Shown here one piece after another: positions 41,422 through 46,540 of a stretch of 64,000 bases of DNA. The stretch covers positions 297,951-361,950 of the forward strand of contig NTLF01000014.1 in NCBI GenBank assembly GCA_002631855.1, written 5' to 3'. This stretch comes from Zunongwangia sp. ESRF-bin46. Its GTDB lineage: Bacteria; Bacteroidota; Bacteroidia; Flavobacteriales; Flavobacteriaceae. The position numbers were made by a program, and so were the translations under genes. The notes under the pieces were generated by a model. The model was not told the DNA's origin and searched no databases. It saw only the letters and a program-made list of their open reading frames with translations. Every line of letters begins with the position of its first letter. Position 1 is the stretch's first letter.

Positions 41422-41835
41422 TTAGTGAGGTAACTTATTCTTTAAAATTCCGTACAAAAATGTACCCAAGAGCGCGCCTACAATCACAACTAATATTGAT
41501 ATATAACCTGACCCAACTAACACATACATAGGGCCCGGACAAGCACCCGCTAAAGCCCAACCTAAGCCAAAAATAATTCCGCCAATTGCATATCTGGCAA
41601 AACTTTTGTTTTTAGGGGTTAACTTCATTTCTTGATTGCCAATCGCCTTGAGATTCTTCTTCTTTATTACTTGAATTCCTATAACTCCCAAAACCAAAGC
41701 AGAACCTATAATTCCGTACATATGGAAAGACCCAAACTGAAACATTTCATAAATTCGAAACCACGAAGCTGCTTCAGATTTGTACATTATAATTCCGAAG
41801 AAAATACCAATACTTAAATAAACTAGCTGTTTCAT
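41422..41835 (-). CDS. YeeE/YedE family sulfur transporter half (PmpB-like)
   Basis: GGIIFGLGWALAGACPGP. Confidence 0.88.
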   Translation of the reverse strand: MKQLVYLSIGIFFGIIMYKSEAASWFRIYEMFQFGSFHMYGIIGSALVLGVIGIQVIKKKNLKAIGNQEMKLTPKNKSFARYAIGGIIFGLGWALAGACPGPMYVLVGSGYISILVVIVGALLGTFLYGILKNKLPH

Positions 41836-41839
41836 ACTT

Positions 41840-42397
41840 TTAAAATATTATGGGGAAAATGGCGTGAATCATTACTAAACCACCAATAAAAAACCCGATT
41901 ACGGCAATTAAAGAAGGCAATTGCAAATTACTCAAGCCTGAAATAGCGTGGCCAGAAGTACATCCGCCTGCATAGCGGGCACCAAAACCTACTAACAAGC
42001 CTCCAATTAATAAAACCCCTAATACAAATGGGTTTGATAATTGTTCGGTTGAAAATAATTCTGGTGGCATGTAAGCTTGACCAGCACTATTAATTTGGTA
42101 ATCATTAGAAAGCTGTTCGGCTATTTCTGGATTGATTTCAACCGTATTATTAGACATAAATTGAGAGGCAATAAAACCACCGATAACGGCACCAACTACA
42201 ACTAATAAATTCCAGCGCTCTTCTTTCCAATTAAATTTGAAAAAATCGGCTACTTTTCCTGCTCCACCTGCCGAACACATGGTTCGTAAGTTTGAAGACA
42301 TGCCAAATTGCTTTCCTGCAAAGAGCAATAAAAACATAACCAAAGCAATTAAAGGGCCGGCGACATACCATGGCCAAGACTCATATATTAAATCCAT
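41840..42397 (-). CDS. YeeE/YedE family sulfur transporter half (PmpA-like)
   Basis: WPWYVAG, LVGFGARYAGGCTSGHAISGL. Confidence 0.9.
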   Translation of the reverse strand: MDLIYESWPWYVAGPLIALVMFLLLFAGKQFGMSSNLRTMCSAGGAGKVADFFKFNWKEERWNLLVVVGAVIGGFIASQFMSNNTVEINPEIAEQLSNDYQINSAGQAYMPPELFSTEQLSNPFVLGVLLIGGLLVGFGARYAGGCTSGHAISGLSNLQLPSLIAVIGFFIGGLVMIHAIFPIIF

Positions 42398-42402
42398 AGA
42401 AT

Positions 42403-43746
42403 TTAGTTTTTAAATTCAGTTACCGCATCACTTAAATCGAATACAGTAGTATTTTTAAGTTCAGTTTCCAGAATACTACTACCAGCTGCACTTCTATAAC
42501 CTCCTGCACAATGAACCACAATAGGCTTTTCCGTTGGAACTTCAGAAACACGTTCTCTCAATTGGTGTAATGGGATCGTCAATGCTGATTCAAAAATCTT
42601 TCCTTCTTCCACTTCACTTTCATTGCGTATATCCACAATTGTAAAGGCTTCTTTATTGTTTTTAAATTCTGAAATATTAAATTCTGATGATTTTTTTAAT
42701 CCTTCATTACTTAATGTTACAACTGCTTTAACTTGCTTTTCATAGCCAATTTTTGCAATCCTGTTGAGTAATGTATTTGCTTCTTCTACGGAATTCACAA
42801 CCACGTAAAATTCTTCTTCCGGTTTAACAATAGAACCTAGCCAAGTTTCAAACTTAGAAGTTTTTGAAGTGGCCATAATATTGATGCTTTCGGGTAGATG
42901 CTTTTTTTTAAAAGTTGCTTCATCGCGTGTATCGATTACTAAAATATCACCTTTCTTTTCAGAAACAGAAAGTTGTAAAGGAATGATGCCTATACTTTCA
43001 GAAAGATTTTTAGCACCCTCTTTATTAATAGCGACATTGTACCCAAAATAATGCGGAATAAAAGGTTGCGAACTCAATAAATGGTTGATAAACTGTTCTT
43101 CTGTTTGATTTTTAAAAGCCCAATTACCGATACGTTCGTTACCTAAAGTACTTGAAGAAGCATCGGCGCTCATTCCTTTTCCGCAAAGAGAACCGGCACC
43201 GTGGGCGGGATAAACATATGCGTTATCTGGTAAGTGCTTGAATTTGGTTTGTATGGTATTAAACATCATCTTAGCTAACTCTTCGCGTTTCGCTTTTAAA
43301 TGACCTGCCTTTTCACGTAAATCTGGACGACCAACATCGCCTACAAATAAAGTATCGCCAGTAAATAAGGCAATATTATCAGCTTCGGTAGCTTGTACGG
43401 TGATACTATCTGGGGAATGCCCCGGTGTGTTAATAGCAGTAAAGGTTATGTTTCCCATTTTCACAGTATCGTCATCATCAAAAGACGTATGCGGATAGTC
43501 TGCAGCTGTTTTTTTGCTTGAGTAAATAGTTGCACCTGTTTCTTTATAGATTTGCATATGAGAACTTACAAAATCGGCGTGCGGATGCGTTTCAAACACG
43601 GCAACAATTTGTGCGTTATTATCTTCGGCAAACCTATAATACTGTGTCGGGTTACGTTCTGGGTCTACTAAAGCCATCTTGCCTTCACTTATAATAGCAT
43701 AGGAATAATGCGAAAGTGGCTTATATTCAAACTGTTTTATTTTCAT
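42403..43746 (-). CDS. Persulfide dioxygenase-rhodanese fusion (CstB-like MBL fold)
   Basis: ETHPHADF, TPGHS, TGDTLF, PAHGAGSLCG, middle Cys-less rhodanese, C-terminal VHCAGGYRS. Confidence 0.9.
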   Translation of the reverse strand: MKIKQFEYKPLSHYSYAIISEGKMALVDPERNPTQYYRFAEDNNAQIVAVFETHPHADFVSSHMQIYKETGATIYSSKKTAADYPHTSFDDDDTVKMGNITFTAINTPGHSPDSITVQATEADNIALFTGDTLFVGDVGRPDLREKAGHLKAKREELAKMMFNTIQTKFKHLPDNAYVYPAHGAGSLCGKGMSADASSSTLGNERIGNWAFKNQTEEQFINHLLSSQPFIPHYFGYNVAINKEGAKNLSESIGIIPLQLSVSEKKGDILVIDTRDEATFKKKHLPESINIMATSKTSKFETWLGSIVKPEEEFYVVVNSVEEANTLLNRIAKIGYEKQVKAVVTLSNEGLKKSSEFNISEFKNNKEAFTIVDIRNESEVEEGKIFESALTIPLHQLRERVSEVPTEKPIVVHCAGGYRSAAGSSILETELKNTTVFDLSDAVTEFKN

Positions 43747-43771
43747 AACACCTATTTTTTAAATTATATAA

Positions 43772-43815
43772 CAAAGATACGCAAGTAGCAAATTACTATC
43801 AGTAACATTGGTTAC
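43772..43815 (-). promoter_or_regulatory. Crp-family site plus -7 box for the PDO-yeeE-yeeE unit
   Basis: GTAACATTGGTTAC (43802-43815, GTA-N8-TAC), 22 nt, TATCTTTG (43779-43772). Confidence 0.72.
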
Positions 43816-43835
43816 CTAGCCAGTAGAAATGTGGT

Positions 43836-44423
43836 TTATTTTTTCTGAAGCATGACAAACAGTTCATTCCCCTTTCTTTCTGGTATCGAATTATGGGCAG
43901 TTTCCATAATCTTTATTTCAAAAAAAGGTGAAAACCGTTTTTTATACTCGGCTTCACTTCCGCCGAAAGGCGGCCCGTCATCAGTTAAGGGAAAGTTGAA
44001 AAGCAGCCCCACTAATTTTCCTTTTGGTTTCAACAACTGATACATTTTTGAAACATACTCGTCACGTAAGGAAGGATTAAGTGCACAAAAGAAGGTTTGT
44101 TCTATAATAAGATCGAATGTTTCTTCTAACTTAAAAAAGTCTTGATTTAGTAATTTTTCAGAAGGAAACGTAGGTACTCTTTTTTTAAAGTTTTGTAGAG
44201 CAGTTTCTGAAACATCTACTACATAGACTTCTGTAAAGCCTTTATTATGAAGGTATTCTGCTTCATATGAATTACCACCTCCAGGAATTAAGATTTTTAA
44301 GCTTTTATTGGTAAGTTGATCAAAATAAGTTTTTAGCGGTGTGGAAACATACCCAATATCCCATTTTGTATCCTTGTTTTTATAACGGTTTTCCCAGTAC
44401 GGTTCATTTAAAGATTCCATCAT
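43836..44423 (-). CDS. TPMT-fold SAM methyltransferase, halide/thiol methyltransferase-like
   Basis: WDIG, ILIPGGGNSYE, DFF, EQTFFCALNPSLR, GPPFG. Confidence 0.85.
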   Translation of the reverse strand: MMESLNEPYWENRYKNKDTKWDIGYVSTPLKTYFDQLTNKSLKILIPGGGNSYEAEYLHNKGFTEVYVVDVSETALQNFKKRVPTFPSEKLLNQDFFKLEETFDLIIEQTFFCALNPSLRDEYVSKMYQLLKPKGKLVGLLFNFPLTDDGPPFGGSEAEYKKRFSPFFEIKIMETAHNSIPERKGNELFVMLQKK

Positions 44424-44426
44424 TTT

Positions 44427-45227
44427 TTATTTAGTGAACTCTTTAAAAACAATATATAAGGCCATCGCCAATACAAACCATCCAAAGCTCTTTTTCAGTT
44501 TTTTACCGTCAATGAACTTATTTAACCAAGTACCTACAAATATTCCAACTACTGAAATGGTTGTGAAAATTAATAGAAAAGTCCAATCTATGTCTAGGTT
44601 TTCAACATCGCCTATAAAACCAATTAACGATTTTATAGCAATAATAAGAAGAGAAGTGGCTACGGCTTTTTTCATGGGTAGTTTTGCCAACAAAACCAAC
44701 GCCGGGATTATGAGAAAACCACCACCAGCACCAACAATCCCGGTTAATAGCCCTACTACAATTCCTTCAATAATTATTAATGGGTAGTTATATACAACTG
44801 TTGTTTCAGAAGTTATTTTTTTACCGTTTGATTTAATCATCGAAATGGCAGCCACAAACATGATTATAGCAAAAAACACCATGATAGCGATGTTTTTTGT
44901 CACTACAAAATCGTTTACTTCAAATAGGTAATCAGGTATTGCTGGTACTAAAAATTTTCGAGTGGCGTAGACAGCTATAAAAGCGGGAATAGCAAAAACG
45001 ATAGCTGTTTTAAAGTCTACCAATCCCTTTTGGATATTTCGAATAGCCCCCACCAAAGCTGAAACACCTACAACAAATAAAGAATAAGCTGTTGCAGTAA
45101 CAGGGTTGACATATAGTAAGTATACAAGCACGGGAACGGTTAAAATTGAACCTCCACCACCTATTAAACCTAAAACAATGCCAATTGCTAAAGCGCCAAC
45201 ATATCCTAAAATTTGAGTGATATCCAT
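44427..45227 (-). CDS. Sulfite exporter TauE/SafE family
   Basis: GLIGGGGSILTVP, GIVGAGGGFLIIPAL, AVATSL. Confidence 0.92.
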   Translation of the reverse strand: MDITQILGYVGALAIGIVLGLIGGGGSILTVPVLVYLLYVNPVTATAYSLFVVGVSALVGAIRNIQKGLVDFKTAIVFAIPAFIAVYATRKFLVPAIPDYLFEVNDFVVTKNIAIMVFFAIIMFVAAISMIKSNGKKITSETTVVYNYPLIIIEGIVVGLLTGIVGAGGGFLIIPALVLLAKLPMKKAVATSLLIIAIKSLIGFIGDVENLDIDWTFLLIFTTISVVGIFVGTWLNKFIDGKKLKKSFGWFVLAMALYIVFKEFTK

Positions 45228-45247
45228 TAAACTGAAATGATTTTAGG

Positions 45248-45291
45248 CAAAAGTAGGATAAATGCTTTTTTACAAACGTATCTTATGTTAC
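45248..45291 (-). promoter_or_regulatory. Crp-family site plus -7 box for the tauE-methyltransferase unit
   Basis: GTATCTTATGTTAC (45278-45291, GTA-N8-TAC), 22 nt, TACTTTTG (45255-45248). Confidence 0.7.
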
Positions 45292-45300
45292 ATATAAAAA

Positions 45301-45933
45301 TCAAATTGCTTGAATTTTTATACTATTTCTTCTCAATTCAATTTTTTTCAATGTTTCTAATTTTTTAAGAAGCCTTGATATTACCACTCTAGAAGTGTTT
45401 AGGTCGTACGCAATTTCTTGATGGGTTGTATGTAAAATTGTATCACCAGAAACTTTAGCCTTTTCTTTTAAGTACTTTAAAAGACGTTCATCCATATTTA
45501 AAAAGGCAATGGTATCTACTGTGTGTAATAATTCTTGTAAACGGTTATGATAGCTCTCAAAAACAAAATTTCTCCAGCTTTTATATTTAGCAGTCCACTC
45601 TTCCATCTTTTGAACAGGAATCATTAAAAGCTCTGTATCTAATTCGGCTACTGCTTTAATTTCACTTTTGGTATGCCCTAAACAGCAAGACATGGTCATG
45701 GCACACGTGTCACCAGTCTCTAAAAAGTACATTAATAACTCATCGCCCTTATCATCTACACGAAGCACTTTAATAGCTCCTGAGAGAAGTAAAGGCATTG
45801 ATTTTACGTAATCGCCAATATTAATTAAGGTTGTGTCTTGTGGAATTTGTTTAAAGACAGCAGTTTGTTCAATTTCTTCTATTAAATCTTTTTCAAAAAT
45901 TGAAGCGTACGTGGGATGAATTGATTGATTCAT
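45301..45933 (-). CDS. Crp/Fnr family transcriptional regulator
   Basis: cNMP-like LLSGAIKV, GDTCAMTMSCC, HTH THQEIAYDLNTSRVVISRLLKKL. Confidence 0.92.
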   Translation of the reverse strand: MNQSIHPTYASIFEKDLIEEIEQTAVFKQIPQDTTLINIGDYVKSMPLLLSGAIKVLRVDDKGDELLMYFLETGDTCAMTMSCCLGHTKSEIKAVAELDTELLMIPVQKMEEWTAKYKSWRNFVFESYHNRLQELLHTVDTIAFLNMDERLLKYLKEKAKVSGDTILHTTHQEIAYDLNTSRVVISRLLKKLETLKKIELRRNSIKIQAI

Positions 45934-46030: not shown

Positions 46031-46540
46031 TTACTGAAAAAGAGCTTTTAACTCAGTTGCATCTTTTGGATCCATCTTTTTTGCTAAAACTAAGCTTAAT
46101 TGTCTTCTACGCAAAGCAGCTTCGTATCGTTCTTTTTCCAGTTCTGTTTCTGGTTTTAAAGGGGGAATTGGCACTGGACTTCCCATTTCATCTACAGCTA
46201 CAAAAGTGTAAATAGCTTCATTTGCCTTACTGCGCATACCACTTTCGCGGTCTTCAATCCAAACATCCATAAATACTTCCATGGAGCTTTTAAAGGCTCG
46301 GGACACTTTAGCTTCTACAGTTACAACGCTTCCTAAAGGAATCATTTTATTAAAAGCTACGTGATTAACCGAAGCTGTTACTACAACACGACGGCTATGT
46401 CTACGGGCAGCGATACCAGCTGCTCGGTCCATTCTAGCTAATAGTTCACCTCCAAACATGTTACCAATAGGGTTGGTCTCACTAGGAAGCACTAAGTCTG
46501 TAATTATAGTTCTTGACTCTAAAGATGTTCTAGATTCCAT
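46031..46540 (-). CDS. Acyl-CoA thioesterase (hotdog fold)
   Basis: NPIGNMFGGELLARMDRAA, AIYTFVAVD. Confidence 0.92.
   Translation of the reverse strand: MESRTSLESRTIITDLVLPSETNPIGNMFGGELLARMDRAAGIAARRHSRRVVVTASVNHVAFNKMIPLGSVVTVEAKVSRAFKSSMEVFMDVWIEDRESGMRSKANEAIYTFVAVDEMGSPVPIPPLKPETELEKERYEAALRRRQLSLVLAKKMDPKDATELKALFQ

Follow-up and report, generated by a model that had tools for sequence, protein, structure and literature searches.

Six co-oriented genes at the locus

Within a 64,000-nucleotide (nt) stretch of contig NTLF01000014.1 from Zunongwangia sp. ESRF-bin46 (Flavobacteriaceae), hereafter the window, we analyzed a gene cluster of six open reading frames (ORFs), all on the minus strand (41422-45933), which encode a Crp/Fnr-family regulator, a TauE/SafE-family exporter, a candidate halide/thiol-type methyltransferase (MT), a CstB-like persulfide dioxygenase and two YeeE/YedE-type half-transporters (Table 1). 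Gene identities were read with Pfam and NCBIfam profile scans of the proteins encoded by the window ORFs. The initial annotation had described this group as a co-oriented sulfur unit under Crp control; all six genes were recovered in place on one strand with Pfam support, confirming a co-oriented sulfur unit.

Table 1 Genes and predicted regulatory elements of the cluster, in the direction of transcription (positions refer to the window)
Feature	Position	Strand	Evidence and context
Crp/Fnr-family regulator, 210 aa	45301..45933	-	PF00027 and PF13545
Operator 1, GTAACATAAGATAC	45278..45291	-	tauE-MT promoter; 22 nt upstream of the -7 box TACTTTTG (45248-45255)
TauE/SafE-family anion (sulfite) exporter, 266 aa	44427..45227	-	PF01925, 151.8 bits
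HOL/halide-thiol-type S-adenosylmethionine (SAM) methyltransferase (MT), 195 aa, cytoplasmic	43836..44423	-	PF05724 TPMT, 100.5 bits
Operator 2, GTAACCAATGTTAC, perfect palindrome	43802..43815	-	22 nt upstream of the -7 box TATCTTTG (43772-43779)
CstB-like persulfide dioxygenase of the metallo-beta-lactamase (MBL) fold with two rhodanese domains, 447 aa	42403..43746	-	PF00753, PF00581 (twice)
YeeE-type half-transporter, 185 aa	41840..42397	-	PF04143, 68.8 bits; Cys146 in GGCTSGH
YedE/DUF6691-type half-transporter, 137 aa	41422..41835	-	PF04143 (44.7 bits) and PF20398; Cys99 in GACPGP

The gene spacing is operon-like, with 3 nt between the tauE stop and the MT start (TAA AAA ATG), 5 nt between the dioxygenase gene and yeeE, and 4 nt between yeeE and yedE. 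A terminator scan found none between the MT gene and the dioxygenase gene, and read-through from the tauE promoter into the dioxygenase unit is therefore possible.

A shared operator in front of both units

The gaps before tauE (73 nt) and before the dioxygenase gene (89 nt) each hold a GTAAC-N4-G(A/T)TAC sequence, the second of which belongs to the promoter of the dioxygenase-yeeE-yedE unit, and downstream of each operator, at a distance of exactly 22 nt, comes a -7 box of the Bacteroidota type (TAnnTTTG). This composite pattern of operator and -7 box occurs twice in the window, compared with 0.00 occurrences expected from 100 shuffles. Conservation was assessed in 80 related loci, which were fetched with the MT as query and searched with a strict composite scan, resulting in 56 sites; in 54 the spacer measures exactly 22 nt. 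The genes that they front encode TauE (20), MBL-rhodanese proteins (12), a cytochrome c lipoprotein (7), RND efflux systems (6) and others.

Moreover, perfect palindromes with a slightly different -7 box precede type II sulfide:quinone oxidoreductase (SQR) genes (loci L008, L012, L015 and L030) as well as OsmC-CydAB genes, the latter two encoding cytochrome bd (L034 and L041), and a composite site with the arm GTAAT stands before genes for an OsmC-like protein and CydA (L034:9503, L041:12189). The SQR genes each have their own GTAAC-N4-GTTAC operator (with one mismatch in L031), and the -7 box that follows it at 22 nt reads TATTTTTA (L012 and L030), TACTTTTA (L031) and, in the canonical form, TAATTTTG (L008). 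A composite operator with GTACT in place of the GTAAC arm was also observed before a gene for a SulP/STAS-family anion permease (L008:2608-4425). If transcription starts a few bases past the -7 box, the centre of the palindrome would fall at approximately -41/-42, which is the position of a class II CRP/FNR activator. Because the conserved operator GTAAC-N4-GTTAC stands at this fixed 22-nt distance before both tauE-MT and the dioxygenase unit, the adjacent Crp-type protein is predicted to control the cluster, and very probably does so, in agreement with what had been proposed initially.

Recurrence of the methyltransferase among sulfur genes

Allowing up to one mismatch in the operator before the first gene, operator-headed chains of same-strand genes were found to end with the MT in 29 out of 76 loci, and 27 of these chains are made of genes for TauE, MBL-rhodanese, rhodanese, HMA, cytochrome c, thioredoxin or peroxiredoxin proteins. 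The usual flavobacterial array runs Crp-TauE-MBL/rhodanese-rhodanese-HMA-cytochrome c-thioredoxin-MT, near which SQR, a second CstB-like gene, a 1-Cys peroxiredoxin, CydAB or YeeE/YedE genes are located. A thioredoxin gene clusters with the MT in 34 loci, typically directly upstream, and a type II SQR gene follows directly downstream of the MT in four (L012:8751-10001, L030:8914-10164, L031:4714-5964 and L008:12930-14270). Cytochrome bd oxidase has been reported to be insensitive to sulfide. The combination of SQR, persulfide dioxygenase, rhodaneses, sulfite exporter and cytochrome bd thus marks sulfide and reactive sulfur as the theme of the regulon.

Among the 40 closest loci (identity of about 58% and above), 37 had regulon genes within 8 kb of the MT, compared with 9 among the 40 more distant ones, all nine of which are Flavobacteriaceae-like. 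In a search of one genome from each of 200 Flavobacteriaceae genera, the MT was present in 85, always as a single copy, and a Crp protein of this type in 163; the latter occurred in 78 of the 85 MT-positive and in 85 of the 115 MT-negative genera (hand count), figures which are descriptive only, as relatives are not independent. MT and Crp genes lie no more than 14 kb apart on one contig in at least 22 genomes. Overall, the link between the MT and the regulon is recurrent, and it was found almost only in Flavobacteriaceae and not in more distant Bacteroidota. The synteny of the MT with the cluster, which the initial annotation had named as a point to check, therefore recurs in many Flavobacteriaceae genera under the same operator as the persulfide and sulfide genes, and we consider it highly likely that the MT is co-regulated with sulfur genes.

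A methyltransferase of the halide/thiol type

The MT matched the TPMT profile PF05724 over positions 3-196 of 218, well above the cut-off of 26 bits. The motifs from which it had initially been read as a HOL/halide-thiol enzyme are present, TFFCALNPSLR at residues 110-120 and GPPF at residues 150-153. Searching the PDB with phmmer returned AtHOL1 (3LCC, 2.9e-20), 9H0D (7e-20) and 8AJP (9e-20) as best matches, and human TPMT only at 2.9e-6; solved relatives thus include AtHOL1, a fungal thiol methyltransferase (TMT) and the halide methyltransferase (HMT) of Paraburkholderia xenovorans (8AJP). An AlphaFold2 model built with 26 homologues (pLDDT 92.6, pTM 0.89) gave the same picture in Foldseek, with 8AJP first (TM score 0.88), followed by the Tulasnella HMT and AtHOL1 (3LCC, 0.82) and then by TPMTs (TM score 0.80, root-mean-square deviation 4-5 Å). 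The closest relatives in both sequence and structure are therefore halide/thiol methyltransferases of the HOL/HTMT/HMT subgroup and not thiopurine methyltransferases (TPMTs), and orthologues are annotated as 'methyl halide transferase' in some sources.

The pocket of AtHOL1 is formed by P20, V23, L27, W36, W47, Y139, V140, C143, Y172 and R214 (PMC7839550). Four of these residues, W36, W47, C143 and R214, are kept in the MT as W10, W21, C113 and R183, and the seven aligned pocket residues of the MT are invariant in 76 sequences, save one gap at W10. Within the HOL/HMT branch, the MT appears to represent a clade of its own with tight sequence conservation. Judged by its family, it is predicted to methylate a halide, HS- or SCN- with SAM as donor. 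HMTs and TMTs methylate halides, HS- and SCN-, and the family is promiscuous (PMC8453949), so that sequence alone cannot separate the substrate readings of the MT.

An assignment to the bacterial TPMTs acting on selenium and tellurium was rejected, the MT scoring 54.8 bits against a cut-off of 223.2 (TIGR03840) and 49.5 against 213 (NF009732). Likewise, a relationship to MddH or MddM was rejected on the family assignment, TPMT being the best family; apart from TPMT, the MT gave only generic Methyltransf_11/25/12 matches, and UbiE/UbiG models were absent among its NCBIfam hits. The separation from Mdd enzymes was drawn from family descriptions (PMC12904073), and the idea of a route distinct from MddA, as initially suggested, holds at the level of the protein family. 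Two genes for membrane methyltransferases of the ICMT/PEMT family were noted elsewhere in this genome (C9:69454-69660 and C12:636160-636435; open frames of 258 and 160 aa). ICMT/PEMT is the family to which MddA presumably belongs. A literature search for a flavobacterial halide methyltransferase or for this cluster found nothing specific.

Dioxygenase, transporters and regulator

The dioxygenase aligned over its full length to 3R2U of S. aureus (residues 3-428, 3.4e-53), which we take to be the structure of CstB, and to 3TP9 (5e-60). It shows the CstB layout, in which an N-terminal MBL domain is followed by a rhodanese-like domain and, at the C-terminus, by a rhodanese whose loop bears the catalytic Cys. 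Both the metal motif (HPHADF, residue 54) and the rhodanese loop (HCAGGYRS, residue 412) have been kept. On the strength of the full-length alignments and these motifs, the designation as a CstB-like persulfide dioxygenase-rhodanese, already given in the initial annotation, appears justified. TauE and the two YeeE/YedE halves are assigned by Pfam at the level of the family and not of a transport specificity; the halves reached 42.4 and 23.7 bits against the TsuA equivalog NF052577 (cut-off 400), and the YedE half also gave weak matches to selenium-transporter models.

The regulator combines a cyclic nucleotide-binding domain (PF00027, 38.6 bits) with a Crp-type helix-turn-helix (PF13545, 34.2 bits). 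Its best PDB matches were 3DV8 (7e-17) and NtcA (1e-10), CRP was matched as well, and it scored below all NCBIfam equivalog cut-offs (CRP, NtcA, Fnr, FtrB) and thus is not one of these named Crp/Fnr members. Its recognition helix, SRVVISR, shares an Arg-Val pair with NtcA, the target of which is GTA-N8-TAC. Among 32 cluster-linked orthologues, Cys77 and Cys83 are invariant and Cys84 occurs in 31; the three residues are placed in the ligand-binding beta-roll, where CRP holds cAMP, and 3DV8 as the closest solved relative retains two of the three. Cysteines at the position of the cAMP pocket point to sulfane sulfur, or some other species that reacts with thiols, as the probable signal.

The predicted consensus motif of HcpR2, GTAACnnnnGTTAC, is identical to the palindrome of the cluster; in HcpR2 proteins, which regulate hcp, CRP position 181 is occupied by Pro (PMC1274295). 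An identity of the regulator with HcpR2 was rejected, as Val and not Pro is aligned to E181 and the operators front sulfur genes and not hcp. A literature search for a Crp-type persulfide sensor found nothing specific, and a Crp/Fnr-type switch with pocket cysteines for a sulfide regulon appears to be new, as we found no paper describing it.

Regulon genes in the remaining genome

The assembly, which is 99.95% complete, gave no tblastn match (E<=1e-5) to the one flavobacterial type II SQR used as query (L008), so that the absence of sqr from the window, as initially noted, extends to the genome by this search. In a partial look at the 17 Pyr_redox_2 matches, two were scanned against NCBIfam and received no SQR assignment, and a third (C1:3882) resembles an NDH-2 paralogue by eye. 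CydA (cytochrome bd) and the OsmC-like protein likewise gave no tblastn match in the assembly. In related genera, SQR, CydA and OsmC stand under the same operator, and the regulon of this genome, whose organism is a Marixanthomonas-like flavobacterium, appears to be a contracted version with no detectable SQR or bd oxidase and with the MT directly behind tauE. Because neither SQR nor cytochrome bd was detected, the MT may be the only enzyme here that acts on free HS-.

Allowing up to one mismatch in the operator, five composite sites were identified genome-wide, all with a 22-nt spacer, four of which front sulfur genes, including the two in the window. The others of these four belong to a second island (C9:11363-19015; L083), in which a Crp paralogue with 52% identity and an operator are followed by TauE2-MBL/rhodanese2-DUF442 sulfurtransferase genes. 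On the opposite strand of this island a perfect operator precedes genes for a 120-aa protein, DoxX, one DsrE-like and one SoxB-like protein (the latter at 260 bits, short of the 550 set as cut-off for SoxB) and TlpA; another YedE-like gene lies nearby, and the island has no methyltransferase. The fifth site, GTAACAATTGTGAC (C10:21901-21914; L084:1402-1839), stands before a gene for a 124-aa DUF983 protein without an obvious sulfur link. Sites returned by a looser pattern (C14:149987, C15:14392, C10:57720 and others) were taken as chance, as they either differ from GTAAC/GTTAC or are not immediately followed by a gene.

Two further genes were noted. Directly upstream of crp, on the same strand, lies a gene for a YciA-like acyl-CoA thioesterase (4HBT; 46031-46540 in the window), the synteny of which with crp does not extend beyond the genus except to a single relative (L014); given this narrow distribution, it is probably outside the unit. 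In addition, a 568-aa protein with an N-terminal HMA domain, a pyridine-nucleotide disulfide reductase domain and a CCAS end is encoded at C16:about 1000-2900, which is the layout of the mercuric reductase MerA.

Discussion

We cautiously favour the interpretation that the cluster is a contracted stress regulon against sulfide and reactive sulfur with an oxidative and a methylation branch, in which the MT would act on HS-, persulfide or methanethiol (MeSH). Here, sulfane sulfur or a related thiol-reactive signal would activate the Crp-type protein, which, bound to GTAAC-N4-GTTAC, would turn on both tauE-MT and dioxygenase-yeeE-yedE. The CstB-like enzyme would convert low-molecular-weight persulfides to sulfite or thiosulfate, with its rhodanese domains shuttling sulfane sulfur, TauE would export sulfite, and the YeeE/YedE halves would transport thiosulfate or a related sulfur anion. 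The MT, translated right after TauE, would use SAM to methylate small soft anions, the likeliest being HS-, hydropersulfide/polysulfide or MeSH, and its products, MeSH, dimethyl sulfide (DMS) and methyl polysulfides, would be volatile and membrane-permeant and exit the cell. Methylation would then be the sole enzymatic sink for free HS- in a genome without a detectable SQR. We infer the DNA binding, the signal, the enzyme activities and the physiological substrate alike, and the substrate is the weak link in this chain.

Several observations weigh against a sulfur role of the MT in particular or against the coherence of the regulon. The MT has no detectable sulfur neighbour in loci of Pontibacter, Ignavibacteria, Chitinophaga, Flammeovirga and the Lutibacter/Flavobacterium type, even at relaxed thresholds, the Lutibacter or Flavobacterium loci having a PyrR-like neighbour instead. 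In seven Polaribacter loci (L041, L044, L050, L060, L073, L075 and L077) an opposite-strand nadB-nadA pair is located between cytochrome c-thioredoxin and the MT, and past this insertion no good operator is left for the MT. Some members of the regulon, namely HMA, RND efflux and TonB-receptor genes, have no obvious sulfur role. Regarding the enzyme itself, Y139, V140 and Y172 of AtHOL1 are replaced in the MT by the invariant Q109, T110 and F142, the shorter MT does not have the N-terminal lid that carries P20, V23 and L27 in AtHOL1, and R152 of human TPMT aligns with Q109. The nearest relatives of solved structure bear the name of halide methyltransferases, and halides abound in seawater. Position 139 differs among active HMTs as well (R in 8AJP, Y in 9H0D), and the second pocket arginine, R183, is kept in the MT.

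The most serious alternative, which we nevertheless consider unlikely, takes the MT physiologically as a methyltransferase for a halide (iodide, bromide or chloride) or thiocyanate, forming CH3I, CH3Br or CH3SCN, with its place in the regulon explained by a general stress response or by SCN- that the rhodaneses make from cyanide. Consistent with this are the best sequence and fold matches (8AJP, the T. calospora HMT and AtHOL1), the annotation of orthologues as methyl halide transferases, the promiscuity of the family for halides, HS- and SCN- (PMC8453949), and the occurrence of an orthologue outside any sulfur context in distant Bacteroidota. However, operator-headed chains tie the MT to SQR, persulfide dioxygenase, rhodanese and thioredoxin in many genera, no halogen-metabolism gene stands beside it in any of the 80 loci, and, given the promiscuity, halide activity in vitro would be compatible with a sulfur role. 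Somewhat less probable still is that the substrate of the MT is a larger thiol or a heterocycle (for instance a low-molecular-weight thiol, a cysteine or persulfide of a protein, or a xenobiotic), or that the MT is an incidental insertion into the operon with no shared function. The lack of the N-terminal lid hints at a pocket that is more open, the position of the gene differs by genus (after the TauE, thioredoxin, rhodanese or HMA gene), and the MT is dispensable in 115 of 200 genera; yet the invariant pocket residues are those common to small-anion methyltransferases, and the fact that the MT has kept its place in operator-headed chains through rearrangements speaks for selection to maintain co-regulation.

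We assign the lowest probability to a detoxification enzyme for selenium or tellurium in the manner of bacterial TPMT (tpm), which would methylate selenide or telluride made by its thioredoxin and rhodanese partners, while YedE-type proteins would serve to transport selenium. Its membership in the TPMT family, the thioredoxin gene directly upstream of the MT in many loci and the weak matches of the YedE half to selenium-transporter models would fit such a role, as would the methylation of selenite-derived anions by human TPMT (PMC13089183). In contrast, the MT stays below the TIGR03840 cut-off, TPMTs rank below halide methyltransferases in both sequence and fold, and a regulon with SQR, a CstB-like dioxygenase, TauE, a SoxB-like protein and cytochrome bd points to sulfur. 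Moreover, selenium and tellurium are scarce in seawater.

Returning to the interpretation as a sulfide and reactive-sulfur regulon, its oxidative half (cst, BigR/Blh, FisR) and the MT family are each already known, and what appears to be new is a HOL-type MT as a regular member of a sulfide regulon, for which we found no describing paper. Known persulfide sensors comprise the CsoR-type CstR, the ArsR-type SqrR/BigR and the sigma54-type FisR, and the regulator would represent a fourth structural class. According to a 2026 review, unknown Mdd enzymes may exist in several isolates of Bacteroidota (PMC13360808). We put forward, tentatively and as a rather speculative possibility, that the MT is the missing H2S/MeSH S-methyltransferase (Mdd) of marine Bacteroidota, switched on by sulfide via a cysteine-dependent reactive-sulfur sensor of the Crp family. 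Roughly two in five Flavobacteriaceae genera carry this candidate. If this holds, bloom-associated flavobacteria would be an inducible source of MeSH, DMS and methyl polysulfides and, by promiscuity, of methyl halides. The MT is thus a concrete candidate for an unknown MeSH/DMS- or methyl-halide-forming activity of marine Bacteroidota: methylation of HS- or MeSH would add abundant marine flavobacteria to the producers of climate-relevant MeSH and DMS, and a preference for halides would make the MT a regulated bacterial source of methyl halides.

Among known systems, the cst operon of S. aureus (CstR, CstA, CstB, SQR, TauE) likewise places a dioxygenase-rhodanese and TauE in one sulfide-stress unit. 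CstR is a persulfide-sensing repressor of the CsoR family, whereas the cluster studied here has a Crp/Fnr-type regulator predicted to act from an activator position; furthermore, SQR was not detected in the genome by tblastn, and the MT and the YeeE/YedE halves are added. With the BigR-Blh system of Xylella and Agrobacterium the cluster shares a kit of a dioxygenase with a sulfurtransferase domain, a TauE-like exporter and a split YeeE/YedE, and the second island holds a DUF442/BLH-type sulfurtransferase, as in BigR-Blh. Acinetobacter baumannii reportedly uses the same tool kit in its persulfide regulons under FisR and BigR. The BigR-Blh and FisR systems rely on ArsR-type or sigma54-type sensors and, to our knowledge, do not include a methyltransferase. 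In comparison with class II promoters of NtcA, CRP and FNR, the operator shares the GTA-N8-TAC core, but the regulator shows no connection to 2-oxoglutarate or nitrogen.

The plant HOL1/HTMT, fungal HMT/TMT1 and bacterial HMT enzymes belong to the same family (PF05724) and share the fold of the MT model (TM scores 0.82-0.88), but the identity is only 25-30%, the lid is absent in the MT, three pocket residues are substituted, and none of the known enzymes has been reported inside a sulfide-oxidation regulon. Mammalian TPMT is a more distant member of the TPMT family (E about 3e-6). The human enzyme methylates HS-, polysulfides and GSS- (glutathione persulfide) as a non-oxidative removal of reactive sulfur species (RSS), and R152 is required for its methylation of persulfide and disulfide anions (PMC13089183); in the MT this essential residue corresponds to Q109. 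Mdd enzymes detoxify H2S and MeSH to DMS and are induced by H2S (PMC11445057, PMC12904073), with MddH and MddM2 being of the UbiE type (COG2226) and MddM1 of the UbiG type (COG2227) (PMC12904073), and MddA being an integral membrane enzyme. Compared with MddA, MddH, MddM1 and MddM2, the MT would follow the same chemistry and logic with a protein of a different family, TPMT/HOL.

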